Of a stretch of DNA of 54,708 nucleotides, positions 68 through 45,996 are shown one piece after another (positions within the stretch are counted from its first letter, which is position 1; each line of letters begins with the position of its first letter). The notes beneath the pieces were generated by a model. It made no database searches. It saw nothing but the letters and a program-made list of their open reading frames with translations, and was not told the origin of the DNA. This DNA comes from an uncultured bacterium (lineage in GTDB: Bacteria; Patescibacteriota; Minisyncoccia; Phycocordibacterales; CAIZLB01), in the NCBI GenBank assembly GCA_903848795.1, contig CAINHC010000016.1, positions 1 through 54,708 of the forward strand, given 5' to 3'. The translations under genes and the position numbers were made by a program.

Positions 68-95
68 ATCGTAACAAAGGGGTTGGGGGTGTCAA
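68..95 (-). promoter_or_regulatory. sigma70-type promoter, probably leaderless
   Basis: TTGACA (95-90), N16, TACGAT (73-68), ATG at 61. Confidence 0.5.
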
Positions 96-184
96 GCGGA
101 TATGCCAGTAGATAAAACATCTAAATAGACGACCGCCTCCGCTTCATTGAAACCGTATTTAATTAGTTTTTTGATTGTTTGCAT
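92..184 (-). pseudogene. Truncated TrmB-like regulator, first 30 codons only
   Basis: Hand translation MQTIKKLIKYGFNEAEAVVYLDVLSTGISA* matches the N-termini of the three intact TrmB-like ORFs (L..G(F/L)...E..(V/I/L)YL), and it is divergent from a LivJ-like gene like the others. Confidence 0.7.
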
Positions 185-189
185 ATATA

Positions 190-204
190 GTCCTAACTTG
201 GGAC
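190..204. promoter_or_regulatory. Candidate TrmB-like operator GTCC-N7-GGAC
   Basis: GTCCTAACTTGGGAC, 5 nt from the trmB remnant start codon. Confidence 0.5.
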
Positions 205-335
205 GACATTATCTTCATAATTATCCTTATAATATAATATCATATATATAAATATATCAAAATATTAACCAAATGTAGGACGCATAATCGATATAGTCAT
301 ATAATTCTGTTCACATAATAATAACCAACGGAAAT

Positions 336-1421
336 ATGAAATATAAAAAGATAATTATACCAGGAGTGTTTGTTTTAGCCTTGTTACTCTACGGGCTCTT
401 TGCGGATTTTAAAAATGATAAATATGTAAAGATTGGGGTAACACTACCCTTATCTGGTAACTTGTCTATGTATGGAGAATCCATCTTGAATGGAATAAAT
501 TTGGCAATCAATGAACAAAACAATTCATCTGACCCTTTAAAAATTGATTTAATTGTTGGAAACAATGAAGGATCAGCGAATAAGGCGGTTTCTGATGTTA
601 ATAATTTCGTGTATGTTGATAAGGTATCGGCGGTTTATAATTCATTTGAGTCATTAGGTCTTGCAGCCAGAGAAATTGTCGAAAAAACTCATGTACCGAT
701 GATAATGAGTACCACATATGTTCTAACTGCAAAGGATTCTCCAAAATTTACTTTTCGTGACTATTGGAATTTTAAAAATATTGGAAATGATTTTAACATA
801 ATTTTGAAAAAGGACAGTGTATCATCAGTTAAAATTCTTGCGCAAAACGATAATTCATATAATGACTTTAAGAGCGATATAGTTCAAGATGGTGTTGAAT
901 TAGGTAGGGAAGAGAAGTTTAATTATGGAGAAAAGGATTTCAGAACCAGCCTATCTAAGCTTAATATTTCAAGTAATGATAATTTGATAGTCTATGCTTT
1001 CCCAGTTGAAGCCTCTTTAATTGTTAAACAATTAATTGAACTTGGAGTTAAACCTAATAGGTTACTAATTACTGAGGCTACGGAGTATCCAATTATGTCC
1101 GATAGTAAAAGTGTCAGTTATTTGAGCGAGATTGGAGCTTATAGTTATGTGTCTTCAGAGATTCTTGATAATCAGGATTTCGTATCAAAATACAAACAAG
1201 CTTATAAAATAAATCCTCGAGCTGATTCAGTATATGCTTATGAAGATAGTAGAATGCTAATAGGAGCTATTAAAAAGTGTGATAAATTTGAATATAAAAT
1301 TGAAGATCAAAGAGTTTGTATTAAGGATGAAATTAAAGGAGGATTCGATGAGTTTAATAATATTAATAGGAATGTACCTATCGTGAAGTTTGGTGGGGGA
1401 AGGTTCAGTGTAATTAAATAG
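336..1421 (+). CDS. LivJ/LivK-like (branched-chain amino acid type) substrate-binding protein with N-terminal membrane anchor
   Basis: KIGVTLPLSG..G..ILNGINLAINE N-terminus, EKFNYGEKDFRTSLSKL and YAYED motifs, hydrophobic N-terminal helix without lipobox Cys. Confidence 0.85.
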   Translation: MKYKKIIIPGVFVLALLLYGLFADFKNDKYVKIGVTLPLSGNLSMYGESILNGINLAINEQNNSSDPLKIDLIVGNNEGSANKAVSDVNNFVYVDKVSAVYNSFESLGLAAREIVEKTHVPMIMSTTYVLTAKDSPKFTFRDYWNFKNIGNDFNIILKKDSVSSVKILAQNDNSYNDFKSDIVQDGVELGREEKFNYGEKDFRTSLSKLNISSNDNLIVYAFPVEASLIVKQLIELGVKPNRLLITEATEYPIMSDSKSVSYLSEIGAYSYVSSEILDNQDFVSKYKQAYKINPRADSVYAYEDSRMLIGAIKKCDKFEYKIEDQRVCIKDEIKGGFDEFNNINRNVPIVKFGGGRFSVIK

Positions 1422-1443
1422 AATGTATCGAATTAAATATTGT

Positions 1444-2196
1444 TTATTCGGTCTTAACCGTAACATTATTCCAAATCAGATTGAAGAAAGAAGAAAAAAT
1501 ACTACTGAATGGCTCTGATTCTATGATTAGTGAATAAATCTTTTGATTATCCATAAAGAATAGGGCAGTCTTGTTGCCGTAGATATACATTGAGCTTTTT
1601 ATATCTTGCGGACCTTTGACCTCTCTCGTTTCTCTGAATGAATTACTTGCAAAGCCCTCGTCAATGTCACCCGGCACAAATTCAGGTCTGATGATTCTAA
1701 TATGTATATTTGACTGCTCTCTATTTTTAATCCATTCACGGCTAACTTTTGGAAAATATTTAATAAAATCTGGTCTAAGATATGCACTTATGGTTTTTAC
1801 CTTTGTAAGCTTGGAATGATCTAAAATATCTTGTAGTACCGCCTTAGATCCTTCCTTGCCAGTGTATAACTTTGCGGAGGGAACTGTTCTTCCGTCTTCA
1901 GAAAGTAACCTTAGTTCTGGAACCAATTCCTTCATTTTCTCCAGCTTCTCTTCTTGTATTTTTAATAATCTGTTAGGACTCTCCGCTCCATAGTATTTAA
2001 CTCCATTTTTCCTCCACATACTTACTAAGCCCATTCTTTGCATTGATAGTAGGGTGTCATATATGGTTGTTTTTGCAATTCCAGTGTCTTGTACAATCTG
2101 GGTAATTGAACAGTCCTTAAGTTTAAGGAGGCTTAAATAGACCTGAGATTCTTTATCGGAAAAGCCGATTTGTGATAGTTGTTGAATATAATTCAT
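1444..2196 (-). CDS. TrmB-family transcriptional regulator (wHTH plus C-terminal sensor-like domain)
   Basis: LSQIGFSDKESQVYLSLL...TGIAKTTIYDTL..M..MGLV winged HTH, AESPNRL linker, C-terminal IYGNKTALF. Confidence 0.85.
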   Translation of the reverse strand: MNYIQQLSQIGFSDKESQVYLSLLKLKDCSITQIVQDTGIAKTTIYDTLLSMQRMGLVSMWRKNGVKYYGAESPNRLLKIQEEKLEKMKELVPELRLLSEDGRTVPSAKLYTGKEGSKAVLQDILDHSKLTKVKTISAYLRPDFIKYFPKVSREWIKNREQSNIHIRIIRPEFVPGDIDEGFASNSFRETREVKGPQDIKSSMYIYGNKTALFFMDNQKIYSLIIESEPFSSIFSSFFNLIWNNVTVKTE

Positions 2197-2201
2197 AAAT
2201 G

Positions 2202-2216
2202 GTCGGAAAAAGCGAC
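2202..2216. promoter_or_regulatory. Candidate TrmB-like operator GTCG-N7-CGAC
   Basis: GTCGGAAAAAGCGAC, 5 nt from the trmB start codon, the same offset as the 190-204 site. Confidence 0.5.
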
Positions 2217-2343
2217 TAATATATTATACATTAGGAACCTTATAATACAAGCCTGTTTCTGTTTTACATAAAATATCAAGTATAAACTGCGATTAAGTTG
2301 ACAAAGTATAATATGATGTTGCCGTAATAATTTAAATAAAAAT

Positions 2344-3480
2344 ATGAAAAAACATAAAATTATATCAATAATTATAGCGGTAATACTTGTTGTGACAGTT
2401 ATATTCGTGGCTAATGGGGGTGTGGATGGTGCTAATAACTCAGATACTATCAAGATTGGCTTTATAGGTGCTCTTTCAGGAGCTGATCCTTCATATGGAG
2501 AGGCTATGAAAGGTGGGGTAGAGATTGCTGTTGAAGAAATAAATGCGGAAGGTGGAATAGGTGGTAAGAAAGTTGAAGTAATATATGAGGATGGCAAGTG
2601 TATTGATTCAAAGAGTGCTCTGTCTGCTTTTCAAAAGCTAAATGACATAGATCATGTAAAGGCAATAATCGGTGGTGGATGTTCAAATGAGGTGTCTTCT
2701 ATTTCTAAATTAGTTGATGAAAATAGAATATTTCTGATATCCTCTGGTGCATCTAGTCCCGATATCTCTGGTTCAAGCCGGTACATCTTTAGAAACTCAT
2801 CAAATGATACAGAGATGAGTAGACAGTTAGCTAATCAAATTAATAAAGATGGATTTAGGGACATCGCAATTATTTCTGATAATTCGGATTTTTCTTCAGG
2901 ATTCAGAAAATCATTTATTAATGAGTTTGATAAGATTGGCGGTGTTGTGAGTGGAGATATAATTGTTCAAGCCAATCAATCAGATTATAGATCCGATATT
3001 GCTAAACTTAAAGCTTCTAATCCAAAAGCCATATTTATTAATCCAGCTGTTCCAAAGACTGCAGGTATTATTGTAAAGCAAATACAAGAAGCTGGTTTAA
3101 CTTCTAAAATATATTTAACATACATGGCAACACCTGCATTTTTCAATATAGCAGGGGACAGTGCTGATGGTGCAACTGTAATTGATCTACCAAAGATTTC
3201 TGGTAATCTCGCAAACAATATTCTTACTAAGTTTGAAGCTAAATATGGTCACAAAACTGTTTACGAATATAATACAGTTGCGGCATATGATGCGATGATG
3301 GTGATTAAAGAATCTATATCGAAAGTCGGATATGATTCTGATAAATTATCCAATTACGTATCAACGCACAGCTTCTCCGGCGGTCTCGGTAATTTCAGCT
3401 TTAATAACCAAGGTGATGTTTCTGGAATGAAATATACATTCCAAATTATTAAAGGACATGAGTTGATGGAGATAAAATAA
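2344..3480 (+). CDS. LivJ/LivK-like substrate-binding protein with N-terminal membrane anchor
   Basis: IKIGFIGALSG, YEDGKC...GGGCS Cys pair, SSGASSPDIS, DYRSDIAKLK and AAYDA motifs. Confidence 0.9.
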   Translation: MKKHKIISIIIAVILVVTVIFVANGGVDGANNSDTIKIGFIGALSGADPSYGEAMKGGVEIAVEEINAEGGIGGKKVEVIYEDGKCIDSKSALSAFQKLNDIDHVKAIIGGGCSNEVSSISKLVDENRIFLISSGASSPDISGSSRYIFRNSSNDTEMSRQLANQINKDGFRDIAIISDNSDFSSGFRKSFINEFDKIGGVVSGDIIVQANQSDYRSDIAKLKASNPKAIFINPAVPKTAGIIVKQIQEAGLTSKIYLTYMATPAFFNIAGDSADGATVIDLPKISGNLANNILTKFEAKYGHKTVYEYNTVAAYDAMMVIKESISKVGYDSDKLSNYVSTHSFSGGLGNFSFNNQGDVSGMKYTFQIIKGHELMEIK

Positions 3481-6995: not shown

Positions 6996-8324
6996 ATGTT
7001 TGAAACACCACCAATTTGGAAAAAGCTATTAACAGTTGAACTTATTGAAAAAATTCAAAATTCAAAAGAAGTTCAAGATATTTTGAGTAAAGCTCAAAAG
7101 GAGTATGTTTATTGGGATAAATTCAAATATTATAATTTTCCTCAAAACATCACACCCAAAGAAGCCTGGGCTTTTGTTAAACTTTCTAGGATGTCTTTGA
7201 TTGAAAGGACTCCAGTCAAATCAATTTCTGGTGATAATTTTAGCTATAATATTCCCAAAGATTTATATCAAAAATTAAATTTTATCGATACGCATGGAGC
7301 GGGTTTACTTAAGAGTTTTCAAGATAAACCTTCTAGTGCTCAAACTTCAAAATATATAATCAGCAGTTTAACTGAAGAATCTATCGCATCTAGTCAAATT
7401 GAAGGAGCGAACACAACTCACAAAATCGCAAAGGAAATGATTTTATCACAGAGAAAGCCGAGAAATAAAAGTGAACAAATGATTGTGAACAACTATTTGG
7501 CAATGCAAAAAATTGCACAGTGGAAGGATATTGATTTGACGGAACAGATGTTACTAGATTTGCAAAAGATATTAATAGATCAGACAGTTGACGAACCCCT
7601 AATTGTTGGAAGATTTAGAAGGGATGAAGATGAGATAGTCGTATCTGATCAGATTACTGGGGAGATAGCTCATGTTCCACCAAAAGAAAAATTGATGCTT
7701 TCTGAATTGAAAAGATTTATACAGTACGCTAATCAAAAAGAGAGTGATGATAGTTTTATTCATCCAGTTGTAAAGGCATCCATCCTTCACTTCTGGTTTG
7801 CTTATTTACATCCGTTTGCGGATGGTAATGGTAGATCATCGAGAGCAATTTTTTATTGGTATTTATTGAAAAATGATTATTGGCTTATAGAATACGTTTC
7901 CATTTCCAGAGCTATAAAACAAAGTCGAAAAGCTTATGACAACGCTTTTTTGTATAGTGAAAATGATGATAATGACATGACTTATTTTCTATTATATATT
8001 ACTGAGACTTTCAAAAAATCTATATTACAGTTTATGGAATATTTTGAAAGGAAGGAGATTGAAATAAGGGAAATAAAATCCAATACTTCAGTGTCTTCTA
8101 AATTTAATATTAGACAGACTGTTCTGCTTCAATATTTTTCTGAACATCCCGATGAATCTATTGATGTCGCGACCCATCAAAATAAAAATGGAATTTCTCG
8201 TCCTTCTGCTTATAATGACTTGGCTATGTTAGTTAAGAAAGGTTTGCTTGCTGAAACAAGAAATGACAAAAGACTGATATATATGCCAAATATCAATAAG
8301 ATTAAAAAATTATTTAATTTATAA
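6996..8324 (+). CDS. Fic-domain protein with C-terminal winged HTH
   Basis: HPFADGNGRSSRA catalytic motif, SSQIEG inhibitory motif upstream, ISRPSAYNDLAMLVKKGLL wHTH. Confidence 0.9.
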   Translation: MFETPPIWKKLLTVELIEKIQNSKEVQDILSKAQKEYVYWDKFKYYNFPQNITPKEAWAFVKLSRMSLIERTPVKSISGDNFSYNIPKDLYQKLNFIDTHGAGLLKSFQDKPSSAQTSKYIISSLTEESIASSQIEGANTTHKIAKEMILSQRKPRNKSEQMIVNNYLAMQKIAQWKDIDLTEQMLLDLQKILIDQTVDEPLIVGRFRRDEDEIVVSDQITGEIAHVPPKEKLMLSELKRFIQYANQKESDDSFIHPVVKASILHFWFAYLHPFADGNGRSSRAIFYWYLLKNDYWLIEYVSISRAIKQSRKAYDNAFLYSENDDNDMTYFLLYITETFKKSILQFMEYFERKEIEIREIKSNTSVSSKFNIRQTVLLQYFSEHPDESIDVATHQNKNGISRPSAYNDLAMLVKKGLLAETRNDKRLIYMPNINKIKKLFNL

Positions 8325-8390: not shown

Positions 8391-10273
8391 ATGAATTCAT
8401 CTAACGTGGATATGGAAAATAAACAGAGTAAGGTTGTTAAAAATTCCAAAAAAACCAAAAAGACACCCGAAAAGAAGGAAAAAGGCGCTTCACTGCTTGT
8501 TAATTTTGGTAGGGTAATGAAACTTGTCTGGGCTTATGACAATATGACAAGAAGTTTTTGCCATTGGAATTTTCCTTAATTATACTTGTGTCAGTCTTGC
8601 CAATTGTCCTCTCTTGGTTTTCTGCCTTATTTGTTAACAAAATAACATCCGGAGAGCTGACGACTATATTTGATCCGGGTCTAATTGGAATTGTCTCTGT
8701 TTATTTAGCTCTCCCTTTGATAATAGAATTGGCTGATGTTTGGTATGAATATTTTGATAATATGTTTTATGTATTTTTTGCACAACATATTAACTTGATG
8801 TTTATTGATAAGAAAAACGAAATTGATGTGCAGACATTCGAAAATCTTGAGTTTAATAATCTTATGCTCAAGGTTAATGAAAATACAAGTAAAATGGTTC
8901 ATTTTTGTGACTACTCATTCTTTTTGGTTGGTAAAATCGCAATACTTTTTTCTGTAGTATTTATTTTGTTTAATTACGAATGGTGGTTTGTTCCAGTTTT
9001 ACTTTTAGCCATTATTCCAAACTTGATTTTGCAAATAAAATTTGGAGAAAGAGTATATGGTATTTGGGACGCCAAGGCTGAGGTTAGACGTAAATATAAT
9101 CTTTTTACGTGGTATTTTTCTGATATTGCATCTTTGACAGAGATAAAAATATTTAAAAATAAAAGTTATTTTAAGAAAAATATCATTGGTTTACTAAATA
9201 TTTTTAATTCTGAGATCAACAATAATGAAAACAGGAGGACAAAATATAGAAATCTGACGACACTGCTTGAGATGGCTGTTGGTGCTGTGATTGTGTTTTA
9301 TTTAATGAATAGTGTTATAGAAAAGACCTTAGCAGTTGGAACATTTATATTCCTTCTGGGTAGAATGAATGATGTCAGAGATTCATTGACTTCTATTTTT
9401 AGAAACTTCTCTGTGCTTATGGGTGACAATAAGTTTATTAGTGATGTCTTTAAATTTTTATCCACCGAAAAGGTCGTTAAAGGAGGAGACAAAATAATAG
9501 AGGAGGGAACCCCTGAAATCGAATTTTCAAATGTATCTTTTGCCTACCCTGATACTAAAAAGAATGTATTAAATGACTTTAATTTTAAAATAAAAGCAGG
9601 GGAAAAGATTGCCATTGTTGGAGTCAATGGAGCTGGAAAGACAACTCTCACAAAATTGATAATGAGATTTTATGATGTAACAAAAGGGTCAATATCGATT
9701 GGAGGGAATAACATAAAAGATATTGATCTGTCTGATTATTATCATAGAGTAGGGCATCTTTCTCAAAACTATGCGCACTATAAATTGCCGGTTAATGAAA
9801 TTATTGCACTTGGAAATACAGAGGTGACACTAGACATTGATAGGGTGATTGAATCCGCCAAAAAATCCGGTGCACATGAGTTTATCTCTGCCTGGGAAAA
9901 GGGGTATGATACTCAGCTTGGAAAAGAATTTGATGATGGAGTCGAACCTTCTGTTGGTCAATGGCAAAAACTTGCGCTCGCTAGAATGTTTTACAAGAAT
10001 CCTCAGATTTGGATATTGGATGAGCCAACAGCTTCGATTGACTCTGTTGCGGAAATGGAAATATTCCAAGAGCTAGAAAATCTACCAGAAGATAAGACTG
10101 TCATACTAATTTCTCACAGATTTAACACGGTTAAAAATGCTAACAGAATAATGGTGATTGAAGATGGGGAAGTGAAGGAATTTGATAGTCATAATAAATT
10201 GATGAAAATTAAAAACGGAATTTATAAGAAATTATTTGAGATGCAAAAGAAGTCTTATGAGACGGTGTCTTAA
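8391..10273 (+). pseudogene. ABC exporter (permease plus ATPase), frameshifted near the 5' end
   Basis: ORFs 8391-8579 and 8558-10273 join in frame if one copy of the TATGACAA tandem (8535-8550) is removed. Walker A GVNGAGKTT, signature PSVGQ, Walker B ILDEPT. Confidence 0.75.
8535..8550 (+). repeat. 8-bp tandem duplication (TATGACAA)x2
   Basis: Read directly from the sequence. Confidence 0.95.
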
Positions 10274-10354
10274 TGTTATAGGGTGTATATTTGTACACAT
10301 ATTCTAGAAAGTTTTTATAGAATTAATTTTCTCGGCGTGATATAATTTACGCAA

Positions 10355-12151
10355 ATGATTATCGATCCTAATCAGCTTAAAAAACTCGTAGTTGATTCTG
10401 GACTTGTCGCAGGTCCGGAGCTTGATGAAATTGAGCAAAAATCAATAAAAGAAAACAGGCCATTGGGAGAGGCTCTGGTTAACAGTGGAAAAATTTCAGC
10501 AGATGACTATAGAAGAATGCAGGCTTATATACTTGGAATTCCCTTTATTGATATAAGTAGTCAGAAACTTGAATTCGATGTTTTGTCTCTAATCCCTGAG
10601 CCTATTGCTAGAAAGCATAATATTATTGCCTTTAGAAAAAGAGACGATTCTCTTGAGGTTGCCATGCTCGATACTGCTGATCTTTCTGCTATTAACTTCG
10701 TTCAAAAGAAAACTGGTCTAAAGATTCTACCAAGGCTCACTACAACAGAATCGATGAAGTCGGCTTTGATTCAATATCAAAAGAGCTTGAAGGCTGATTT
10801 TGGTGACATTATTCAACAAGAGGTTTCTACTTTGAAGGGTAGAAGTAGTGTTGGGATGGCTAATGCTGCGGGTACAATGATCAACGGAGTTGGTACAGTT
10901 GACGATACTAGTGGAGAGGATTTGAGAAAATTAGCAGAGGACTTGCCGGTGGTTCGAATTATCGACACGCTTCTTAAACACGCAATTTTACAGGGCGCAT
11001 CTGACATTCACATTGAACAAATGGAAAATGAAGTTGTTATTCGATATAGAATTGATGGAATGTTGCACGATGCTATGGTTTTACCAAAAAACATTGGTCC
11101 AAGTGTTACTGCGAGAATAAAAGTCTTGGCAAATCTAAAATTGGATGAAAAAAGGCTTCCCCAAGATGGACGTTTCAAGATTGAATCAAATGGGGAGAAC
11201 GTTTCATTTCGTGTCTCTGTTTTGCCAACATACTATGGTGAAAAGACGGTTATGAGACTACTTAGGGAGAATATGACTGGTTTTACGCTAGAGCATTTAG
11301 GTTTCCATGGTCGAAATTTGGAATTAATTCACGAAGCAACTGGATATTCTGAGGGTTTGATACTTACAACTGGACCAACTGGATCCGGAAAGACTACAAC
11401 TCTCTATACGTTGCTTGATATTTTGAATCAACCGGATGTGAATATCTCAACCGTGGAAGACCCAGTCGAATATCAAATGAATAGAGTTAATCAAACTCAG
11501 GTCAAGCCTGATATTGGTCTGACTTTTGCCTCGGGTCTCCGCTCACTTCTCAGACAAGACCCTGACATTATAATGGTTGGAGAAATTCGAGATAATGAAA
11601 CAGCTTCTCTTGCTATAAACGCCTCCCTTACTGGGCACTTGGTTCTTTCAACCCTTCACACCAACTCATCTGCCGGTGCCGTTCCTCGTTTAATTGATAT
11701 GAAGTGTGAGCCGTTTCTTCTGGTTTCCACTATTAGAATAATCATCGCACAGAGACTTGTGCGCGAGTTGGGATCGTCAAAGGAGAGGTATATTTTAACA
11801 AAAGAGCAGCTAGAGTCACTTAGAAAATACACTGACATGGATATGGTACTGAAGTCACTTAAGGACGAACATGTTGTGGCTGATGATTTGGACTGGTCCA
11901 GTATTTATTTTTACAAGCCAGTACCTGATAAGGAGAGTGAGGATGGATATAAGGGTAGAGTTGGAATTCATGAAGTTTTAAAGGTTTCATCATCTATCAA
12001 GGAGATGATTATGAAAGGGGAGGCATCTGATCAAATTCAAGAGCGAGCTCGAAAAGAGGGGATGCTTACAATGTTTGAAGATGGAATATTTAAAGCAGTT
12101 CAAGGTCATACTTCAATTGAAGAGATTTTGAGGGTGGCATCGTCGGAATAG
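10355..12151 (+). CDS. pilB: Type IV pilus / T2SS assembly ATPase (PilB/GspE)
   Basis: ASDIHIE, PQDGRF, TGPTGSGKTTTLY, EDPVEY, LRQDPDIIMVGEIRD and STLHTN motifs. Confidence 0.93.
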   Translation: MIIDPNQLKKLVVDSGLVAGPELDEIEQKSIKENRPLGEALVNSGKISADDYRRMQAYILGIPFIDISSQKLEFDVLSLIPEPIARKHNIIAFRKRDDSLEVAMLDTADLSAINFVQKKTGLKILPRLTTTESMKSALIQYQKSLKADFGDIIQQEVSTLKGRSSVGMANAAGTMINGVGTVDDTSGEDLRKLAEDLPVVRIIDTLLKHAILQGASDIHIEQMENEVVIRYRIDGMLHDAMVLPKNIGPSVTARIKVLANLKLDEKRLPQDGRFKIESNGENVSFRVSVLPTYYGEKTVMRLLRENMTGFTLEHLGFHGRNLELIHEATGYSEGLILTTGPTGSGKTTTLYTLLDILNQPDVNISTVEDPVEYQMNRVNQTQVKPDIGLTFASGLRSLLRQDPDIIMVGEIRDNETASLAINASLTGHLVLSTLHTNSSAGAVPRLIDMKCEPFLLVSTIRIIIAQRLVRELGSSKERYILTKEQLESLRKYTDMDMVLKSLKDEHVVADDLDWSSIYFYKPVPDKESEDGYKGRVGIHEVLKVSSSIKEMIMKGEASDQIQERARKEGMLTMFEDGIFKAVQGHTSIEEILRVASSE

Positions 12152-12230
12152 TCCCCTTTGGGGAGATTGGGGTGAGGGGTAGGAGTGGTAGCAGGTTCAG
12201 TCAGGGGCTTGTGAACAAAATAAAAACAAA

Positions 12231-13439: not shown

Positions 13440-13442
13440 AAT

Positions 13443-13922
13443 ATGAATATACTAAAAAATAATGCCAGAATTTGTTCCAGTCAAAGAGGTTTTACATTAC
13501 TAGAGGTACTGGTTGTAATGTCTATCATGATTGCCCTTACTTCAATTTCCATAAGTACATATATAAGTATGAGAGACAAGCAGTCTGTCCAAAAAGACGC
13601 CGATTCTATTGTTTCTGTATTACAAAAGGCCCAAAGTATGTCATCTAACAGAAAAAACGATTCCGCCTATGGTGTTAAGTTTGCATCGTCAACTGTAACT
13701 GTATTTTCTGGATCAACGTACGATACTGGTAATGTTATTTCGACATACACTTTGGAAAAGAATGTAAAGATCAATACCATAATCCTTTCTTCTAATGGAA
13801 CAGAAGTTGATTTTATGAAAATTACTGGTAACCCGCTTGCTAATGGAACAGTTACTTTGGGTACAGGATCTTTTTCAAAAATTGTAACAATTTATGGAAC
13901 TGGTATAATTGAACTGAAGTGA
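13443..13922 (+). CDS. Pilin-like protein (FimU/GspH-like)
   Basis: Class III signal RGFTLLEVLVVM. Confidence 0.85.
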   Translation: MNILKNNARICSSQRGFTLLEVLVVMSIMIALTSISISTYISMRDKQSVQKDADSIVSVLQKAQSMSSNRKNDSAYGVKFASSTVTVFSGSTYDTGNVISTYTLEKNVKINTIILSSNGTEVDFMKITGNPLANGTVTLGTGSFSKIVTIYGTGIIELK

Positions 13923-14422: not shown

Positions 14423-14423
14423 T

Positions 14424-14945: not shown

Positions 14946-14968
14946 TTTACATACCATGTATACTATTT

Positions 14969-26099: not shown

Positions 26100-26861
26100 T
26101 TATAACCCCTCCCAAATACCTTTAAATAACTCTCTCATGTTGTGTGCTAGAGTTGCATCGTATATTTGGACAAAGTAATGTGGTTTTTGATTTGTAACCG
26201 CAAAGATCAAGTAATCTCCAGCTACCCAGGTTGATCCAGTAAAATCACCTTCTCTATCCCAAAACTTCACAAGACGTCTATCAAATTGCTTTGATCTGAT
26301 TATATTTTCATATTTCGATTCATTTGTTAGTAAACGAACAGAAAGTTTCTTTGGTGCACAATTTTTCCAGAACCACTCTATCCAGGTGGCATAATGCTTG
26401 GAAAAACTAGGATCTTGGAATCCCCACCAAATTGTATCCTTTTTCATTATACTATCAGCCCAGATTGGTGATTGCTTGTAATAAAAAGTGCCCATATCCT
26501 CTTCATACACAAAGGTTATTTTTGGAATGGAATAACGTGTATTTTTTGTCATGGATTTTAACTCCTCTATGGCTTTATCTATAATCCCCTTCTTCCTCTG
26601 TAAATCCTCCTCCTCCTTTCTACTTATATCCTTAAGGTCATCTGGTGGAAGTGCTACTAGATATTTTTGTTTACCAGCTAAATCCTCAACAATAAGGCCC
26701 TTTTCTACTAGTTCTTGAGCGATTATATACGCAGTTGTACGATTGATGCCCGCAACTTTTGCTGCTCTGGCCGGAGTTATTTTACCTTGTTCTAATATGG
26801 CTAGGTAGAGCTCTATTTCCTTTGGTTTAAATCCTAATTCAGAAAGTAGTTTGTTTATCAT
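26100..26861 (-). CDS. TrmB-family transcriptional regulator
   Basis: LSELGFKPKEIELYLAIL...AGINRTTAYIIAQELVEKGLI wHTH. Confidence 0.85.
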   Translation of the reverse strand: MINKLLSELGFKPKEIELYLAILEQGKITPARAAKVAGINRTTAYIIAQELVEKGLIVEDLAGKQKYLVALPPDDLKDISRKEEEDLQRKKGIIDKAIEELKSMTKNTRYSIPKITFVYEEDMGTFYYKQSPIWADSIMKKDTIWWGFQDPSFSKHYATWIEWFWKNCAPKKLSVRLLTNESKYENIIRSKQFDRRLVKFWDREGDFTGSTWVAGDYLIFAVTNQKPHYFVQIYDATLAHNMRELFKGIWEGL

Positions 26862-26897: not shown

Positions 26898-27022
26898 CAG
26901 ACAAATAGCGCTACAAATATACATATGCTCTTAATAAACTTGGCTTGTGTAACCATAAATATTGCAGAAAATGTAATTTGACATATTATGATATTCGTTA
27001 TCAAAATATAAATATTTTAAAA

Positions 27023-28138
27023 ATGAGCAATAAAACAAAGAAATATATCAGTATTGTGGGCCTAATTGTCATATTAGTCTTGGTTTTTGTATCAATGAAC
27101 CGCAATCAAAACAGCGGTTCAGAGCCAAAAACTATTAAAATCGGGGTAATTGCCTCAATGACAGGGGCTTATTCAAATGTTGGTGAGAATAGCAAAAAAG
27201 GTATAGATCTGGCTGTGAGCGAAGTAAATAAAAAGGGTGGAGTTTTGGGCAGACCAATCGAGGTTGTCTATAAAGAATACCCTGGAGAGGATCAGAAAGT
27301 TGCTGTATCCGCATTTTATGAACTTAATAGTTCTGGTATAAATTTAATCATAGGACCAAGTCTCACCACCACAGGCTCCGCGCTAGCCCCGCTCGCTGTT
27401 CCAAATAATAGTCTATTGATTTCTCCTGCTATTGGCTCTGAGAAATTTGCAGAAGCAAACGAAAATACATTTAGTGTATGGCCTCCTGATAAGGCGGGTG
27501 TTTCAAAGCTGGCGGAATTTGTATTCGAAAAAGGCTTGAGAAGGGTGGCTGTTATTGGCTCACAACAAGAGTGGGAGAGACAAATGGCCGTGTATTTTAA
27601 GGAAGATTTTGAAAAGCTTGGTGAAACAATCACGGATATAGAATTACCTCTGATGACCGACAAAGACCTTAGAACTCAGTCTATTAAGATAAAAGAATCA
27701 AATCCTGAGGCTGTAATCTTTACTAATTATGGTGAAACTAGCTATGCAGCAAAAAGAATCCGTGAAGTAGGAATTGAGTCACCCTTCTTTTCTGTTCTTT
27801 TGGATGAGGAAGGAATAAAAAATGCTAATGGAACGCTTGAGGGTACAATATATGTAACTTCGTACACCCCAACTCCAGAGTTTGTATCTGCTTACAAGGG
27901 CTATTATAATACCGAGCCACAGTTCCCAGCTGACACATCCTATGATTCTGTTATGGTCCTTGCAAAGGCAATAGAGAAGGCCAAAAGTACAGATACTGCT
28001 AAGGTTACAGAGAGTCTGAGTGAGATTTCTTCCTTCAGTGGAGCCTCAGGGGTATTTGGATTTGATGCAAGCGGGGCGGCGGTAAAAACCCCGGCCTACT
28101 ACATAGTCAAAAACGGAAAGTCTGAGCTTTACAAATAA
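27023..28138 (+). CDS. LivJ/LivK-like substrate-binding protein with N-terminal membrane anchor
   Basis: IKIGVIASMTG, GIDLAVSEVN..GGVLGRPIEVV, DLRTQSIKIK, SYDSV. Start set at ATG 27023. Confidence 0.9.
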   Translation: MSNKTKKYISIVGLIVILVLVFVSMNRNQNSGSEPKTIKIGVIASMTGAYSNVGENSKKGIDLAVSEVNKKGGVLGRPIEVVYKEYPGEDQKVAVSAFYELNSSGINLIIGPSLTTTGSALAPLAVPNNSLLISPAIGSEKFAEANENTFSVWPPDKAGVSKLAEFVFEKGLRRVAVIGSQQEWERQMAVYFKEDFEKLGETITDIELPLMTDKDLRTQSIKIKESNPEAVIFTNYGETSYAAKRIREVGIESPFFSVLLDEEGIKNANGTLEGTIYVTSYTPTPEFVSAYKGYYNTEPQFPADTSYDSVMVLAKAIEKAKSTDTAKVTESLSEISSFSGASGVFGFDASGAAVKTPAYYIVKNGKSELYK

Positions 28139-28146: not shown

Positions 28147-28173
28147 AAAAAACCCAGCCCCGCTGGGTTTTTT
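28147..28173 (+). terminator. Intrinsic terminator
   Basis: AAAAAACCCAGC-CCC-GCTGGGTTTTTT. Confidence 0.85.
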
Positions 28174-28220
28174 GCTACCAACTATAATTAGGTCTCAAAT
28201 CCCAAGGGTTTATTGCGTAT

Positions 28221-38545: not shown

Positions 38546-38547
38546 AG

Positions 38548-42180: not shown

Positions 42181-43023
42181 ATGAAAAGATTTAAACCAAC
42201 AAGCCCCTCACGCCGAAACATGGCTATAGTCAACTATGCACAGATTCTTACTACTGACGAGCCATATAAGCCCCTTACAAACGGGTTTAAGCGTGGATCG
42301 GGACGTAATAACACTGGACGTATTACAACTAGACACAAGGGAGGAGGTCACAAGAGACTTTATCGTCAAATTGACTTCAAGTATGACAAAAGAGATATTC
42401 CTGCAAAGATAGACACAATTGAATACGATCCAAACCGTACTTCATTTATTTCTCTCGTAACTTATGCCGATGGAGAAAAGCGTTATGTTATTCTTCCAAA
42501 GACACTCAAAGTTGGAGATAAATTTATTGTAGGCGAGAAGGTTGAGGTAAAGCCAGGTAACAGACTTCCATTAAAGAACATTCCTGTTGGAACATTCATT
42601 TACAACATCGAATTGAAATTTGAAGGAGGATCTAAGCTTGTTCGTTCAGCTGGATCTTTTGCTGAAGTGATTGCTCATGACGGGGGCTATGCTCTTGTTA
42701 AGATGCCATCAACTGAAGTTAGAAAGGTTATAGAAACAGCATGGGCATCAATCGGAGAAGTATCAAATGATGAGAATCGTTTGCAGAATATTGGAAAGGC
42801 TGGAGCAAGCAGACACCGTGGTATCAGACCAACTGTCCGTGGTACTGCTATGAACCCAGTTGATCACCCACACGGAGGAGGAGAAGGTAGACAAGGAAGA
42901 GGACGCAGACGCGCAATTTCTATCTACGGAAAGCCAACCGGAAAGGGACAAAAATCAAGACGCGCAAAGAAGTATTCAAACAAACATATTGTTTCAAGAA
43001 GAAAGGTTGGAAAGAGAAGATAA
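42181..43023 (+). CDS. rplB: 50S ribosomal protein L2
   Basis: IEYDPNRT, VRGTAMNPVDHPHGGGEG. Confidence 0.98.
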   Translation: MKRFKPTSPSRRNMAIVNYAQILTTDEPYKPLTNGFKRGSGRNNTGRITTRHKGGGHKRLYRQIDFKYDKRDIPAKIDTIEYDPNRTSFISLVTYADGEKRYVILPKTLKVGDKFIVGEKVEVKPGNRLPLKNIPVGTFIYNIELKFEGGSKLVRSAGSFAEVIAHDGGYALVKMPSTEVRKVIETAWASIGEVSNDENRLQNIGKAGASRHRGIRPTVRGTAMNPVDHPHGGGEGRQGRGRRRAISIYGKPTGKGQKSRRAKKYSNKHIVSRRKVGKRR

Positions 43024-43080
43024 TCTTTTATCCACCCGACTCTCAAAACAAGAACTTGTGGCTTTGGAGCTGGTCTTATA

Positions 43081-43112
43081 CACAAAACCCCGCAGAAGTG
43101 CGGGGTTTTGTG
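43081..43112 (+). terminator. Terminator after rplB
   Basis: CACAAAACCCCGCA-GAAG-TGCGGGGTTTTGTG. Confidence 0.85.
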
Positions 43113-43141
43113 TTGGATATCTTTTGGTGTATAATTTAAAC

Positions 43142-43900
43142 ATGAGTTTTAGATACAATCCAATACAAAGATGGGCAAAGACGATATATAGAAAGTTTAA
43201 CCCAATACCTGGTTCTCCTTGGACCAAAGGTCATGTTGATGACATTTGCGCGATTAATTTGGTTCCACCAGAGACATTAAAAACTTTTTTTACAAATTGT
43301 ATTGAAAGACTTCAAGCCATTAAAGGAAAAGAGATTGGAGACTATCTTGAGTTTGGTGTCTTCAATGGTTCATCCTTAGGAAGCGCTTATCTAACTGCAA
43401 AAAAGATGGATCTTAAATCTATGAAGTTTTTTGGGTTTGATTCATTTGAAGGTCTACCTACAGGAACAAACGAGGAGCATGATATTCTGCAAAAAGGATT
43501 TTACTGTTGTCCATTTAATAAAACAAAGGAGTGTCTGGAAAGAAGGGGTGTTGATTCAGAAGATGTTACTTGGATTAAAGGTGTATACAATGAGACGCTA
43601 AATGATGAAACATTTAAGAATATTGGTTATCCAAAAATCGGAATCGTATTTATTGATTGCGACACATACAGTTCATCCAAAAATGTTCTTGATTTTCTTG
43701 CCCCGTTAATAGTGGAGCCCGCAATTATTTGTCTTGATGATTGGAAGCTTTATGATATGGATATAAAAGGAACTGGTGAATATAAATCTTTCAATGAATT
43801 TTTAGAAAGAAATAGACATATTAAAGCTAAGGAAATCAAATCGTACAATAGAAAATCAAAAACTTTTATTTTGATGCCAAAAGTTACTTCAAGGGATTAG
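43142..43900 (+). CDS. TylF/MycF/NovP-like O-methyltransferase
   Basis: DYLEFGVFNGSS, GFDSFEGLP, WIKGVYNETL, FIDCDTYSS, DDW. ATG at 43142 lies 6 nt after TATAAT. Confidence 0.8.
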   Translation: MSFRYNPIQRWAKTIYRKFNPIPGSPWTKGHVDDICAINLVPPETLKTFFTNCIERLQAIKGKEIGDYLEFGVFNGSSLGSAYLTAKKMDLKSMKFFGFDSFEGLPTGTNEEHDILQKGFYCCPFNKTKECLERRGVDSEDVTWIKGVYNETLNDETFKNIGYPKIGIVFIDCDTYSSSKNVLDFLAPLIVEPAIICLDDWKLYDMDIKGTGEYKSFNEFLERNRHIKAKEIKSYNRKSKTFILMPKVTSRD

Positions 43901-43919
43901 TGTTTTTAAATAGAACGGG

Positions 43920-44669
43920 TCATTCTTGTTGCGCCGACTGCCAAATTATCTCAAACTGTTCTTCTTGTAATTGTATTATTCCAGGATTTTCTATGACGAT
44001 TGTTAAAATAGGTGAGACCATTTGCGTAATGATAACTTTGTTTTTTAATATAACTAGGTTACTAATTAGATCTACATCTTTTGGTAAATATCTAATATCC
44101 CAATTAATTCTCTTTCCGTATTCTTTATATTTCTCGGCTTCAGGTGTTCTTTGAAGTAAGGTCCTTAGAGACAAATGTAGGTGACTTCTTTTCTCCACCC
44201 AGTCTTCGAAGAAATCTTTATCTATTTTCATGAACTTTTCAATATCAGAAATAATTAGGTATTTATCGCCATATCTCAGCTCTTTCAATATATCCGTGTA
44301 GACCTTTTTGAAGCCGGAGATCCCCTCGTAATATTTAATAAAATTGAGACCGGTGTGTATTTGGTATTTGCTAGATAGCTCGGGGATAATTTTTGATAGG
44401 TTATCTTTTTTAAGCTCGTAAGTCTTCATTAGATTCTCTGGGTTGGATGCAACAAATAGCTTTTTGAGACCATTAATTTCAATACTGATTAGCCCCTTAA
44501 TTTTAAGTGCTTCTATTACGGAGTAGGCGGTAGTTCTGATGACCCCCGCTCCTTTGGCAATATTGATGGCTGTTGCAGGCCCGAGGCTTAGGTTTGCCAG
44601 ATAAATTTTGGCTTCGTTTTCCGTTAGGCCAATGTCTTTGATTATTTCTATGGTTCTATTAGTTAGCAT
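43920..44669 (-). CDS. TrmB-family transcriptional regulator
   Basis: DIGLTENEAKIYLANL...AGVIRTTAYSVIEALKIKGLI. Start at ATG 44669 chosen by alignment to paralogs, GTG 44741 is an alternative. Confidence 0.85.
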   Translation of the reverse strand: MLTNRTIEIIKDIGLTENEAKIYLANLSLGPATAINIAKGAGVIRTTAYSVIEALKIKGLISIEINGLKKLFVASNPENLMKTYELKKDNLSKIIPELSSKYQIHTGLNFIKYYEGISGFKKVYTDILKELRYGDKYLIISDIEKFMKIDKDFFEDWVEKRSHLHLSLRTLLQRTPEAEKYKEYGKRINWDIRYLPKDVDLISNLVILKNKVIITQMVSPILTIVIENPGIIQLQEEQFEIIWQSAQQE

Positions 44670-44768
44670 GTTTGTTGAATGTTTATATTGTTTTGTATAA
44701 AAGTGTCGATTACTTCGTCGTCTAAATATACCATATACCACTTATATAATATAGCACTTCTAGATACG

Positions 44769-44785
44769 TGTCGACAAAACAGACA
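44769..44785. promoter_or_regulatory. Candidate TrmB-like operator TGTC-N9-GACA
   Basis: TGTCGACAAAACAGACA, with one-mismatch copies at 44705-44719 and 44800-44814. Confidence 0.5.
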
Positions 44786-44838
44786 TAAACTATCTTTAGT
44801 TCTATAATTACGACACATTAATAATAAAAAGCAAACAT

Positions 44839-45996
44839 ATGAAAAGTAATTATAAAAAAATAGTATTTATGTCAGTTGTATTCATAGCCTCAATATCGGC
44901 TGTAATATTGGGTGCTTCTGGTCAGTTTGATAGTAAAGATGTAACTATTACCGCAATGTTCCCCATGACGGGCGGATTATCATCTTATGGTGATTCAGCA
45001 TCTAAGGCTTCAATCCTAGCTGTGGAAGAAATTAATGCAAACGGTGGAATTAATGGCAAGAAATTGAAGCTAAATCTCCAAGATCATAAATGTGACGCAA
45101 AGGAGGCTGTTGCAATATATAAGCAGTTTAAGTCTACTACTGATGTGTTCACATCTGCTGCTTGTAGTGGTACGGCGCTTGCCATAGCCCCAATGCTTGA
45201 AAATGATGGGTCTGTTCTGTTAGGTTCAACACTTTCTACACCTAAGATAAGCGGTGTGTCTAAAAACCTCTTTAGAAATTGGTCATCAGACGCAAAGGAG
45301 GCAGAACTGTTTGCGGGCCTACTAAGGGGAGTTAATTATAAGAAGATCGGAATAATTTATGAAGAAACTGATTATGCTAAGGGATTAAAGGAATCTTTGG
45401 AAAAGGACGTCCTAGTTGACTCGACAACATCATCTTCTGACTCAAAACAGGTCTATTCTGAGGGGTTTGTCAGTGGATCGACTGATGTTAGAAGCCAATT
45501 GCTTAAACTCCAGTCCGAGGGGGTAGATGTCCTGTTTATTAGCCCTCAAACTGTTACTTCCGCAGAGATTATTGCCAAGCAGATGACTGAATTTGGCTTT
45601 AAACCAAAGACAATATTAGTCAACGACAATGTTAGTAAAGCAGATAGCCTACTTTCAAAATACTCAACCTTATTTCAAGGCGCTTACGGGGCAGATTATA
45701 GAATAGAAAATAGTAAGGCTATTGAAGATTTTAAGTCTAAATATAAGGCTAGATTTGGCGAAGATTGCAAGCAGGTCAATATCTGTATCGCGGAGTACGA
45801 TAATATTAAAATAATGGCCAAGGCTTTGTCTGCGACAGCTGGCTCAAACTATGATAAAGCCGAAATTCGGGCCTATATTAAAGGAATAAATTACGAAGGA
45901 GTGTCTGGAAAAATAAGTTTTGACAATAATAACGATAGGTCCAACGCTGAATACTCGCTACTTAAGGTGAATAATGGAAAAGCAACTATGATTTAG
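44839..45996 (+). CDS. LivJ/LivK-like substrate-binding protein with N-terminal membrane anchor
   Basis: FPMTGGLSSYG, LAVEEINANGGING, DHKC...SAACSG, DVRSQLLKL, EYDNI. Confidence 0.9.
   Translation: MKSNYKKIVFMSVVFIASISAVILGASGQFDSKDVTITAMFPMTGGLSSYGDSASKASILAVEEINANGGINGKKLKLNLQDHKCDAKEAVAIYKQFKSTTDVFTSAACSGTALAIAPMLENDGSVLLGSTLSTPKISGVSKNLFRNWSSDAKEAELFAGLLRGVNYKKIGIIYEETDYAKGLKESLEKDVLVDSTTSSSDSKQVYSEGFVSGSTDVRSQLLKLQSEGVDVLFISPQTVTSAEIIAKQMTEFGFKPKTILVNDNVSKADSLLSKYSTLFQGAYGADYRIENSKAIEDFKSKYKARFGEDCKQVNICIAEYDNIKIMAKALSATAGSNYDKAEIRAYIKGINYEGVSGKISFDNNNDRSNAEYSLLKVNNGKATMI

Follow-up and report, generated by a model that had tools for sequence, protein, structure and literature searches.

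TrmB-like regulators paired with LivJ-type binding proteins, and a single Liv-type translocator, in a CPR genome

What does a transcriptional regulator do beside a solute-binding protein gene when the two lie head to head at site after site, in DNA that carries no importer for the binding protein to serve? This question is raised by the window, the whole stretch of 54,708 nucleotides analysed here, in which four such modules occur (numbered below by their binding proteins). A first reading, made from the sequence alone, took the pair for a modular two-gene sensing or scavenging system whose binding protein either plugs into a shared transporter elsewhere or acts in host sensing or adhesion. 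Our best reading, to which we assign a probability of roughly 0.7, is that the pairs are separately regulated specificity cassettes that share one Liv importer.

Divergent pairs in the window and the genome

Pfam searches bear out the divergent pair at four sites in the window. The binding proteins are four Peripla_BP_6 members (75–178 bits against a cut-off of 31.7; E 1e-20 to 5e-52), and the regulators comprise three intact TrmB-like genes, whose TrmB winged helix-turn-helix domains (PF01978) score 42–51 bits against a cut-off of 25.6 (E 6e-11 to 1.5e-13), and one remnant (Table 1). The remnant, first proposed as a decayed trmB, is real: on the minus strand, positions 92-184 read MQTIKKLIKYGFNEAEAVVYLDVLSTGISA followed by the stop, in agreement with the N-terminal consensus of the family, and match a TrmB-like protein of a relative (40% over 30 amino acids, E 6e-5). 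Past the remnant, the minus strand carries a different gene that runs off the contig. Binding protein 1, whose regulator has been lost, is the most divergent copy, and no close ortholog of it was found among the sister-species loci fetched (best match 27%). Likely true starts are ATG 27023 (MSNKTKK...), not 26945, for the binding protein 3 gene and ATG 44669 for the third intact regulator, that of module 4. The modules are copies in the sense of protein-family paralogs but not of DNA repeats, with identities of 17–40% among binding proteins and 11–38% among regulators.

Table 1. Coordinates and strands of the paired genes and associated sites in the window
Feature	Position	Strand	Remarks
TrmB-like regulator remnant	92..184	-	30 codons + stop; N-terminal helix region only
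Binding protein 1 (LivJ-type, predicted N-terminal membrane anchor)	336..1421	+	Peripla_BP_6 E 1e-20, 75 bits; own-family HMM 341 bits
TrmB-like (predicted TrmBL2-type) regulator, partner of binding protein 2	1444..2196	-	PF01978 E 7.5e-12
Divergent spacer, module 2	2197..2343	.	147 bp
Binding protein 2	2344..3480	+	Peripla_BP_6 E 1e-48
TrmB-like regulator, partner of binding protein 3	26100..26861	-	PF01978 E 6e-11
Binding protein 3	26945..28138	+	Peripla_BP_6 E 5e-52
TylF-like O-methyltransferase gene	43142..43900	+	PF05711 E 5e-11
TrmB-like regulator, partner of binding protein 4	43920..44741	-	PF01978 E 1.5e-13
Divergent spacer, module 4	44742..44838	.	back-to-back promoter-like sites
Binding protein 4	44839..45996	+	Peripla_BP_6 E 4e-42
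Promoter-like site ahead of rpsS	46544..46571	+	TTGACA-16-TAGTAT, with TG

The 1.02-Mb genome as a whole encodes 15 binding proteins, all of which pass the Peripla_BP_6 cut-off, and 15 TrmB-like regulators identified by PF01978 or a family HMM. When a pair is defined as a binding-protein gene with a divergent TrmB-like start no more than about 190 bp away, 10 of the 15 are paired, giving 10 intact divergent pairs. Because about 0.05 pairs would be expected for 15 regulator genes placed at random in 1.02 Mb, the observed number far exceeds chance. Pairing is nonetheless not obligatory, since four or five binding proteins of the 15 lack an adjacent regulator. The claim that every TrmB-like gene has a LivJ-like partner holds in the window but fails genome-wide, where three intact TrmB-like genes instead adjoin an SPFH gene, an inositol monophosphatase-family gene and a META-domain gene. 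On contig C35, one binding-protein gene is flanked by genes for a DNA methylase and a PD-(D/E)XK nuclease, and an array of pairs on contig C6 contains the island-type genes PRiA4_ORF3 and AAA_14/DUF4143.

The pair recurs in related genomes. Divergent pairs counted from a profile search give a divergent regulator for 81 of 132 binding proteins by the Pfam HTH alone and for 34 of 50 with the family HMM, and a distant CPR genome (G105) encodes two such pairs. Correlated partner distances further bear out the pair as a genuine unit of two genes inherited together (Mantel r 0.74 over 44 pairs, reached in 0 of 5,000 permutations; r 0.36 over 37 non-redundant pairs, reached in 0 of 10,000), and the nearest neighbours of the two partners agree in 17 of 37 cases. 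Within single genomes the distances correlate weakly because the paralogs are saturated (r 0.31, p 0.04 in this genome; p 0.14 in its sister species, G004; p 0.24 in G017). Both genes of the pair are under purifying selection: relative to the sister species (dS 0.5–1.2), dN/dS is 0.05–0.16 for binding proteins and 0.008–0.09 for regulators, with values of 0.10 for binding protein 2, 0.037 for its partner and 0.025 for the module 4 regulator.

Regulators and divergent spacers

The regulators are 241–277 amino acids long and their Pfam match is limited to the HTH. An AlphaFold model of the module 2 regulator (pLDDT 87) places a helix at residues 75–101, followed by an alpha/beta domain. With the whole chain, Foldseek returned TrmBL2 (5bpd, E 8e-13) first and TrmB (3qph) next, and the C-terminal domain matched NucT and PLD3, which points to a PLD-like fold. 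Consistent with this, the regulator profile aligns with TrmBL2 over its full length (residues 12–252 against 12–263, E 1e-11) and with TrmB 3qph over residues 6–156 only (E 3e-14). The predicted architecture is the short one of TrmBL2, composed of a winged helix, a long helix and a PLD-like domain. Thermococcales TrmB has 338 amino acids, and neither Pfam, profile alignment nor protein length revealed its C-terminal sugar-binding subdomain in the regulators. The analogy drawn earlier with the ligand-sensing sugar regulator is consequently weaker than assumed, in that membership of the TrmB family stands and the sugar-binding subdomain does not.

In six of the seven orthologous pairs compared between this genome and its sister species, the spacers between the paired genes are 72–96% identical, far more than dS would predict, and each spacer has a sequence unique to its own module. 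The module 2 spacer is 90% identical to that of the sister species and carries a conserved GTCG-N7-CGAC dyad adjoining the regulator start, and the sister species preserves TGTCGACAAAACAGACA of the module 4 spacer in full. In module 3, the regulator is preceded by a sigma-70-like promoter at 26897-26869 (11 of 12 matches, with TG), and a strong bidirectional terminator (28146-28174) lies 3' of the binding-protein gene. No common operator was found across 11 spacers; the best motif, GTC-N9-GAC, occurs in three of them and in module 4 coincides with two back-to-back -35-like boxes.

These observations bear on an alternative in which the regulators sense nothing and act as generic nucleoid or silencing proteins, or as unspecific autoregulated repressors, left adjacent to the binding proteins by joint duplication. 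Their nearest solved relative in both sequence and fold is TrmBL2, an abundant, single-copy and largely sequence-independent chromatin protein for which we know of no effector. The missing sugar-binding subdomain points the same way, as do spacers that yielded neither a common nor a clearly module-specific operator and the occurrence of the same regulator family beside unrelated genes in this genome and beside unannotated genes in a relative (G012). A single generic function is nevertheless hard to reconcile with 15 paralogs that have diverged to 11–38% identity, differ in their recognition-helix residues and reach dN/dS values as low as 0.008. The head-to-head layout and the conserved, module-specific spacers are moreover typical of local regulators, and in one distant CPR genome (G325) a single copy stands opposite a whole liv operon. 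We thus consider non-sensing partners unlikely.

Binding proteins, their translocator and a dispersed pair

The binding-protein profile matches 4gnr (E 4e-64) and LivJ 1z15 (E 2e-49) in the PDB, and the matches include HAAT-type proteins with non-amino-acid ligands. Binding protein 2 is the copy nearest to Escherichia coli LivJ (1z15, E 2.6e-27) and keeps the equivalents of LivJ Y18, C78 and S79, and the closest solved structure to binding protein 3 is 3td9 (E 5e-29). From the LivJ/LivK literature, we take the contacts to the amino and carboxylate groups of the ligand to be S79, A100/T102, Y202 and E226. In an alignment to 1z15 at about 25% identity, which is unreliable in the C-lobe, the contact positions vary widely across the 15 paralogs and the C78-S79 pair is kept only in binding proteins 2 and 4 and in C35_13805. 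Since the amino-acid contacts of LivJ are unconserved among the paralogs, these proteins may bind something other than amino acids. In all 15 proteins, a Lys-rich stretch at the N-terminus leads into a hydrophobic helix some 20 amino acids long, and a lipobox cysteine was found in none of the 15. Judging anchor against cleavage by eye, we predict extracellular proteins tethered to the membrane by an N-terminal anchor rather than by lipid.

The binding proteins had been described as orphans, in a window said to contain no permease or ATPase. That description is accurate for Liv-type genes, as LivH, LivM, LivG and LivF are all absent from the window, though ORF 8558-10273 encodes a 571-amino-acid protein with an ABC ATPase domain. 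The label of orphan does not survive a genome-wide search, which identified exactly one Liv-type translocator, complete and split between livG-livF-livH on contig C6 and livM on contig C22, with further regulator/binding-protein pairs adjoining both loci. The genome encodes exactly two BPD_transp_2 permeases (C6:8820-9695 and C22:22718-23584), and the ATPases of the translocator are LivG (C6:6940-7674, with a BCA_ABC_TP_C tail) and LivF (C6:7961-8686, beside LivH). A liv permease/ATPase set under standard regulation had been named as the finding that would undo the proposed system; the transporter does exist, but its regulation is not standard.

Relatives display a similar linkage. In the sister species, one 33-kb array runs from livM through about 10 modules to livG and through about five more to livF-livH, so that five modules separate livG from livF where this genome has none. 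Among distant CPR genomes, G325 has one TrmB-like gene divergent from a complete operon (BP-BP-livH-livM-livG-BP-BP-livF, where BP is a binding protein), and G322 has a compact BP-livH-livM-BP-livG-livF and a separate pair. Translocator genes are interleaved with receptor arrays in these three genomes and in G007. Across 31 related genomes, the permease is present in all eight with at least five binding proteins and in none of the 23 with three or fewer. The single LivHMGF set, the linkage and this co-occurrence favour the shared transporter elsewhere over host sensing or adhesion.

Were the proteins instead surface sensors or adhesins, they would act in host recognition, attachment or signalling without feeding a transporter, and each regulator would turn one variant on or off, as in a repertoire of variable surface proteins. 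CPR bacteria live attached to hosts, and the predicted surface exposure of these proteins, their extreme diversity and their faster change between sister species (dN 0.025–0.112, against 0.005–0.081 for regulators) would all suit such a role. Several copies, including those in the window, also lie far from transporter genes, and three genomes with one to three binding proteins have no permease detected, which could reflect incomplete assemblies or decaying systems. The strict coincidence of five or more copies with the Liv permease and the interleaving of the arrays with livH, livM, livG and livF argue against this role, as do gene-wide dN/dS values that indicate no diversifying selection and proteins with the length and fold of ordinary transport binding proteins and no added domains. 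We accordingly give a sensor or adhesin role little credence.

The last pair does lie within the S10 operon, as first read, flanked by rplB (42181-43023) and rpsS (46615-46968). The TylF-like O-methyltransferase gene between rplB and module 4 does not belong to the cassette; the sister species lacks it, and the match there is limited to its rplB overlap. Orthologs of the regulator (96% identical) and of binding protein 4 (88%) occupy the equivalent site in the sister species, and a partial match to binding protein 4 (52%) lies upstream of rpsS in G003, so that the insertion is stable in at least two species and probably in three. The junction of rplB and rpsS varies in many relatives, whether or not pair genes are there. 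A promoter-like site within the conserved stretch of 100–260 bp ahead of rpsS might allow transcription of the distal S10 operon to resume past the insertion. That the pairs are cargo of a transposon, integron-like cassette or recombinase-bearing island, spread without selection for uptake specificities, seems to us highly improbable: the unusual rplB/rpsS location, the differing order and content of arrays between sister species, the island-type genes in the C6 array and the flanks of the C35 gene would fit, but none of the window modules has a transposase, an integrase or a terminal repeat beside it, the protein-level divergence of the paralogs is ancient and gives no sign of recent copy-and-paste, and the S10-operon insertion is stable at a junction that varies independently of the pair genes.

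Proposed cassettes and known systems

If the pairs are separately regulated cassettes on one importer, the 15 LivJ-type proteins would be alternative substrate receptors that all dock on the single LivH/LivM/LivG/LivF translocator of the HAAT family. The TrmBL2-type regulator most likely binds the shared spacer of 40–190 bp and would control the receptor gene and probably its own. The unit of regulator, promoters and receptor would have gone through many rounds of duplication and diversification in this Paceibacteria lineage, chiefly in or near the liv operon, and a few copies would have moved elsewhere, such as the one now in the S10 operon. The weakest step is that the regulator might sense the imported ligand via its PLD-like domain, a type of domain that is not known to form an effector pocket alone. 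It is a tentative and rather doubtful suggestion that the pair is an amplifiable 'sense-and-capture' cassette in which this domain reads the cytoplasmic solute delivered via LivHMGF. If true, an ultra-small, regulator-poor CPR cell would possess 15–31 insulated, substrate-specific uptake switches, and its liv operon would have 'exploded' through repeated cassette birth inside it.

The closest transport system is E. coli LIV-I, in which LivJ and LivK serve LivHMGF (HAAT, TC 3.A.1.4). Receptor, permease and ATPase families are the same, more than one binding protein shares a translocator, and several LivJ pocket residues are kept in binding protein 2. Whereas LIV-I has two receptors, which are periplasmic, this genome has 15 (and a relative up to 31), at 17–40% identity and apparently membrane-anchored. 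LIV-I is under global Lrp control; here most receptors have a private regulator gene, and the genes of the translocator are split up and interspersed with those of the receptors. Because the pocket residues are unconserved, the ligands probably extend well beyond branched-chain amino acids.

On the regulatory side, the trehalose/maltose cluster of Thermococcus litoralis and Pyrococcus furiosus likewise encodes a TrmB-family winged-helix regulator, presumably a repressor, next to the gene for the binding protein of an ABC importer, and the N-terminal winged helix and long helix of the two align (3qph residues 6–156). That system is archaeal and imports sugars, whereas the present one is bacterial and Liv-type, with regulators of about 250 amino acids that lack the C-terminal sugar-binding subdomain. 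The trmB gene lies inside its target operon, with one regulator per transporter; here the regulator gene is divergent from its target, with one per receptor. TrmBL2 of Thermococcales (5bpd, 5box, 5bqt) shares the winged helix, coiled-coil helix and PLD-like domain. In place of its single copy, there are 15 divergent paralogs here, 13–15% identical to TrmBL2, and 15 gene-linked paralogs would argue for a local role, unlike the DNA coating of TrmBL2.

Importers with many receptors and few translocators, and with receptor genes apart from the permease as here, include Borrelia OppA1-5 with one OppBCDF, pneumococcal AliA/AliB/AmiA and what we take to be the HAAT-type aromatic-acid binding proteins of Rhodopseudomonas palustris (4evs, 4f06, 3uk0). 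We know of none with a TrmB-type regulator for each receptor, and of none in which such cassettes take up about 3–6% of a 1-Mb genome, as they do here. The parts themselves are known; it is their arrangement, as regulator-paired receptors that most likely share one importer, for which no description was found in the literature searched.

Receptor modules of the window and the rplB–rpsS junction

The parent genome (1.02 Mb in 52 contigs, 98.8% complete; the window is its contig C16) has four LivJ-type binding protein genes in the window, all on the forward strand, and three TrmB-HTH regulator genes on the reverse strand, each facing a binding protein gene. Pfam matches thus bear out the sequence-only reading, which had described four head-to-head modules, the first with a decayed trmB and the last inside the S10 operon. 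That reading also called the modules copies of one another. They do belong to the same protein families, but the binding proteins are only 17-40% and the regulators 11-38% identical, and the window modules are ancient paralogs rather than DNA repeats.

Coordinates of module, S10-operon and translocator genes in the parent genome
Feature	Contig	Position	Strand	Basis or remark
TrmB-like remnant, 30 codons	C16	92-184	-	translation MQTIKKLIKYGFNEAEAVVYLDVLSTGISA*; family N-terminus still matched
Binding protein 1, Peripla_BP_6 (LivJ-type)	C16	336-1421	+	Pfam
TrmB-HTH regulator, partner of binding protein 2	C16	1444-2196	-	Pfam
Binding protein 2, Peripla_BP_6 (LivJ-type)	C16	2344-3480	+	Pfam
TrmB-HTH regulator, partner of binding protein 3	C16	26100-26861	-	Pfam
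Binding protein 3, Peripla_BP_6 (LivJ-type)	C16	26945-28138	+	Pfam
rplB	C16	42181-43023		S10 operon, 5' flank of fourth pair
TylF-like O-methyltransferase	C16	43142-43900	+	between rplB and fourth pair
TrmB-HTH regulator, partner of binding protein 4	C16	43920-44741	-	Pfam
Binding protein 4, Peripla_BP_6 (LivJ-type)	C16	44839-45996	+	Pfam
rpsS	C16	46615-46968		S10 operon, 3' flank of fourth pair
ABC ATPase	C6	6940-7674		LivG-specific BCA_ABC_TP_C tail
ABC ATPase, second	C6	7961-8686
Permease	C6	8820-9695		BPD_transp_2
Permease, second	C22	22718-23584		BPD_transp_2

The S10-operon pair occupies the same site between rplB and rpsS in the sister species (G004) and probably in another relative (G003). 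The TylF-like gene is present at this site only in the parent genome and is absent from it in the sister species, which makes it a separate, more recent insertion. Across the order the junction is variable (window 43024-46614; loci L025-L044): rplB lies within ~120 bp of rpsS in only about 5 of 20 relatives, the gap measures 0.7-1.1 kb in several of the 20, and in at least seven the 1.5 kb upstream of rpsS contain no rplB, some of these genomes having no binding protein gene at all. Conservation within the genus is limited to the 100-260 bp immediately before rpsS, where a promoter-like site (46544-46571) falls. An ORF at 46038-46379 (+, 113 aa) is probably not a gene: its translation is Arg/Pro-rich, Pfam gives no match and relatives do not conserve it.

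Further content of the window (6996-8324, 8558-13439, 21772-23286 and 33354-34610) includes a Fic-domain protein, a 571-aa ABC-ATPase protein, PilB-like and PilC-like type IV pilus proteins and ComEC, and an AAA_21 (AbiEii-like) ATPase is encoded between the str and S10 operons. Neither the Rfam scan nor the tRNA scan of the window returned a match, so no riboswitch or leader accounts for the modules.

A single Liv-type translocator and a large receptor family

The window had been read as devoid of livH/M/G/F-like permease and ATPase genes and its binding proteins as orphans. It indeed contains no Liv permease or ATPase gene; one ABC ATPase domain, the only one there, is found in the 571-aa protein (8558-10273). 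The orphan status does not survive a whole-genome search, which identified exactly two BPD_transp_2 permease genes. Together with two ABC ATPase genes these constitute one LivHMGF-type translocator (LivH and LivM permeases, LivG and LivF ATPases), encoded on contigs C6 and C22 among more module members: the C6 ATPase-ATPase-permease cluster lies ~3 kb from two more binding protein genes and one regulator gene, and the C22 permease gene adjoins two further regulator/binding protein pairs. Between the C6 receptor modules and livG (locus L001, 4382-6917) are a PRiA4_ORF3/DUF6930 gene and an AAA_14/DUF4143 ATPase gene, the latter with five further copies in the genome; both are island-type genes inside the C6 array.

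Genome-wide, the binding proteins number 15 full-length copies and two fragments, and the TrmB-like genes 15 with some additional fragments. Ten pairs (chance expectation ~0.05) are intact and divergent, their spacers measuring 3-189 bp. Several module members lie at contig ends, and the assembly, which is fragmented at the arrays, thus probably broke within them. Every TrmB-like gene has a LivJ-type partner within the window, as had been proposed, but elsewhere in the genome three adjoin genes for an SPFH/Band 7 membrane protein, an inositol-monophosphatase-family protein and a META-domain protein. An unpaired binding protein gene on contig C35 (13805-14929, within 13063-15447) lies between N6_N4 DNA methylase and PD-(D/E)XK endonuclease genes, apparently within a restriction-modification pair.

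The binding proteins are typical members of the HAAT family (matches to 4gnr, E 4e-64; 3td9; 4n0q; and LivJ 1z15, E 2e-49). All 15 have a Lys-rich N-terminal segment followed by a hydrophobic helix of ~20 residues and none has a lipobox, features from which, on inspection of the sequences, anchoring by the N-terminal helix seems probable. At the positions we take, from the LivJ/LivK literature, to be ligand contacts, the paralogs vary widely, and a Cys78-Ser79 pair is kept only in binding proteins 2 and 4 and the unpaired C35 protein (C35_13805), with the caveat that the underlying 1z15 alignment is uncertain at ~25% identity. Such variation would fit diversified ligand specificity.

We surveyed Patescibacteria (CPR) through 30 related genomes (31 in the permease tally) and 301 genomes sampled across the phylum. 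Receptor copy number is patchy among the relatives, with 20, 0, 12, 31, 11 and 1 copies in other species of the window's genus, 13, 0 and 18 in a second genus, 0-5 in other genera of the family and almost none in other families of the order; only 17/301 genomes across the phylum have any copy. A Liv permease is encoded by all eight genomes with at least five binding proteins and by none of the 23 with three or fewer. The divergent pairing recurs in relatives: scored on the Pfam HTH alone, a divergent TrmB gene lies no more than 800 bp from 81/132 binding protein genes, and 34/50 full-length binding proteins in fetched loci are paired by an HMM built from the parent genome's paralogs.

The sister species encodes orthologs 82-96% identical to those of the parent genome. 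One 33-kb stretch contains, in order, livM, ~10 modules, livG, ~5 modules and livF-livH, and a second array of 20 kb contains orthologs of the modules on contig C3 and of binding protein 2. The livG and livF genes are adjacent in the parent genome, whereas ~5 modules separate them in the sister species, so arrays rearrange between close species. Among distant CPR genomes, G325 has one TrmB-like gene divergent from BP-BP-livH-livM-livG-BP-BP-livF (BP, binding protein), G322 has a compact BP-livH-livM-BP-livG-livF cluster, and G322 and G105 have separate TrmB/BP pairs. These layouts look like the ancestral state.

One relative (G012; locus L051, C1:35001-55000) encodes neither Peripla_BP_6 nor a liv permease and has 10 TrmB-like genes; several of these genes are divergent from unannotated 190-250-aa proteins without signal peptides, showing that the regulator family is not restricted to receptor partners. 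In metagenome sequence (L049/L050, 1-1622), a binding protein gene of the SBP_bac_3 (polar amino-acid) type faces a divergent TrmB-like gene, and the same regulator family is thus paired with a different receptor family. Seven genomes from the window's own family were searched for SBP_bac_3 as a possible substitute in TrmB-rich relatives lacking Peripla_BP_6, and none gave a match.

Regulator architecture, spacers and co-inheritance

A profile of the 15 regulator paralogs matches TrmBL2 (5bpd/5box) over its full length (E 1e-11), and its match to TrmB (3qph) is confined to residues 6-156. The AlphaFold model of the 1444-2196 product (pLDDT 87) consists of a winged helix, a long helix (75-101) and an alpha/beta domain, and Foldseek ranks TrmBL2 first (E 8e-13), followed by TrmB and then, for the C-terminal domain, the PLD-fold proteins NucT and PLD3. 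In the broad sense, then, the regulators are TrmB-family proteins, and their architecture is the short one of TrmBL2. They are without the sugar-binding subdomain of TrmB proper, so a role as ligand-sensing repressors goes beyond what the fold itself conveys.

On consensus scans, divergent promoters can plausibly be placed in the spacers, as at 26897-26869(-), with 11/12 matches, and 44780-44808(+) with 44774-44746(-), and a strong terminator is predicted 3' of the binding protein 3 gene. A palindrome search of 11 spacers found no operator common to all. The candidate operator TTTGTCAAT-N14-ATTGACAAA in C3_857 is most simply explained as two back-to-back -35 boxes. GTC-N9-GAC occurs three times in 1,277 bp of spacer versus 0.096 per kb genome-wide, a 24-fold enrichment, though in only 3/11 spacers (185-335, 2197-2343 and 44742-44838), that is, in three of the window's four and none of seven other module spacers. 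The motif is conserved in the orthologous sister-species spacers and, in the fourth module, overlaps two back-to-back predicted -35 hexamers.

Binding protein and regulator distances are correlated across 44 pairs from five genomes (Mantel r 0.74; 0/5,000 permutations reach this value), and remain so without orthologs shared by the parent genome and its sister (r 0.36; 0/10,000), in line with the co-phylogeny that the sequence-only reading led one to expect. In 17/37 cases, the closest relative of a binding protein and the closest relative of its regulator are themselves partners. Within single genomes the signal is weak (r 0.31, p 0.04 in the parent genome; not significant in G004 or the relative G017), paralog distances being too saturated to resolve co-phylogeny at this level.

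We compared selection and spacers in seven orthologous modules of the two sister species. Ratios of dN/dS are 0.05-0.16 for binding proteins and 0.008-0.09 for regulators (dS 0.5-1.2), indicating that purifying selection maintains both genes. The extracellular binding protein evolves faster than its regulator in most pairs (dN 0.025-0.112 versus 0.005-0.081; identities of, for example, 85% versus 99% and 83% versus 96%). Every spacer is unique to its own module, yet six of the seven are 72-96% identical between species, well above the dS prediction; the seventh, whose core is conserved, falls to 54% overall only because it differs in length.

A probable shared importer and its proposed private regulators

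The best-supported reading is that many receptors feed one Liv-type translocator, most receptor genes having a private divergent TrmBL2-like regulator. We put the probability that the receptors serve a shared transporter at about 0.85. It is likely that each regulator controls its neighbouring gene; that each senses a cognate ligand is possible but less likely than not. On this reading the ancestral unit was a TrmB-like gene beside a liv operon, and this lineage has multiplied its regulator-promoter-receptor head.

The receptors could instead act in surface sensing or adhesion without transport, the regulators could be non-sensing, chromatin-like proteins, or the modules could have spread as mobile-element cargo. 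Strict co-occurrence with the permease, purifying selection, conserved module-specific spacers and the lack of flanking recombinases or repeats jointly make these three explanations less likely than a shared importer.

CPR bacteria are uncultured, metabolically minimal and thought to be regulator-poor, and to our knowledge little has been established about the substrates they import from host or surroundings. Receptor cassettes, most with a putative regulator of their own and probably all serving one importer, make up ~3% of this 1-Mb genome and, estimated from copy numbers, ~5-6% of the sister species' genome, which points to the TrmBL2-like family as the principal source of local transcription factors here. 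The ligands of the 15 purifiable binding proteins would reveal the organism's nutrient range, and the family lends itself, as a natural system, to the question of how so many strongly diverged receptors can use one ABC translocator. Since the mechanism consists of known parts, it matters less as a new principle than for this application, above all as a way into the nutrient range of uncultured CPR bacteria and the logic of their regulation.

The literature searched contained no account of TrmB-like/LivJ-type pairs in CPR bacteria. In its mode of operation the proposed receptor-translocator system resembles E. coli LivJ/LivK-LivHMGF, as it does the trehalose/maltose transporter that TrmB controls in Thermococcales. 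What sets it apart is the number and divergence of its receptors and their putative membrane anchoring, the presence of one regulator per receptor, of TrmBL2 type, and the scattering of translocator genes through the array.
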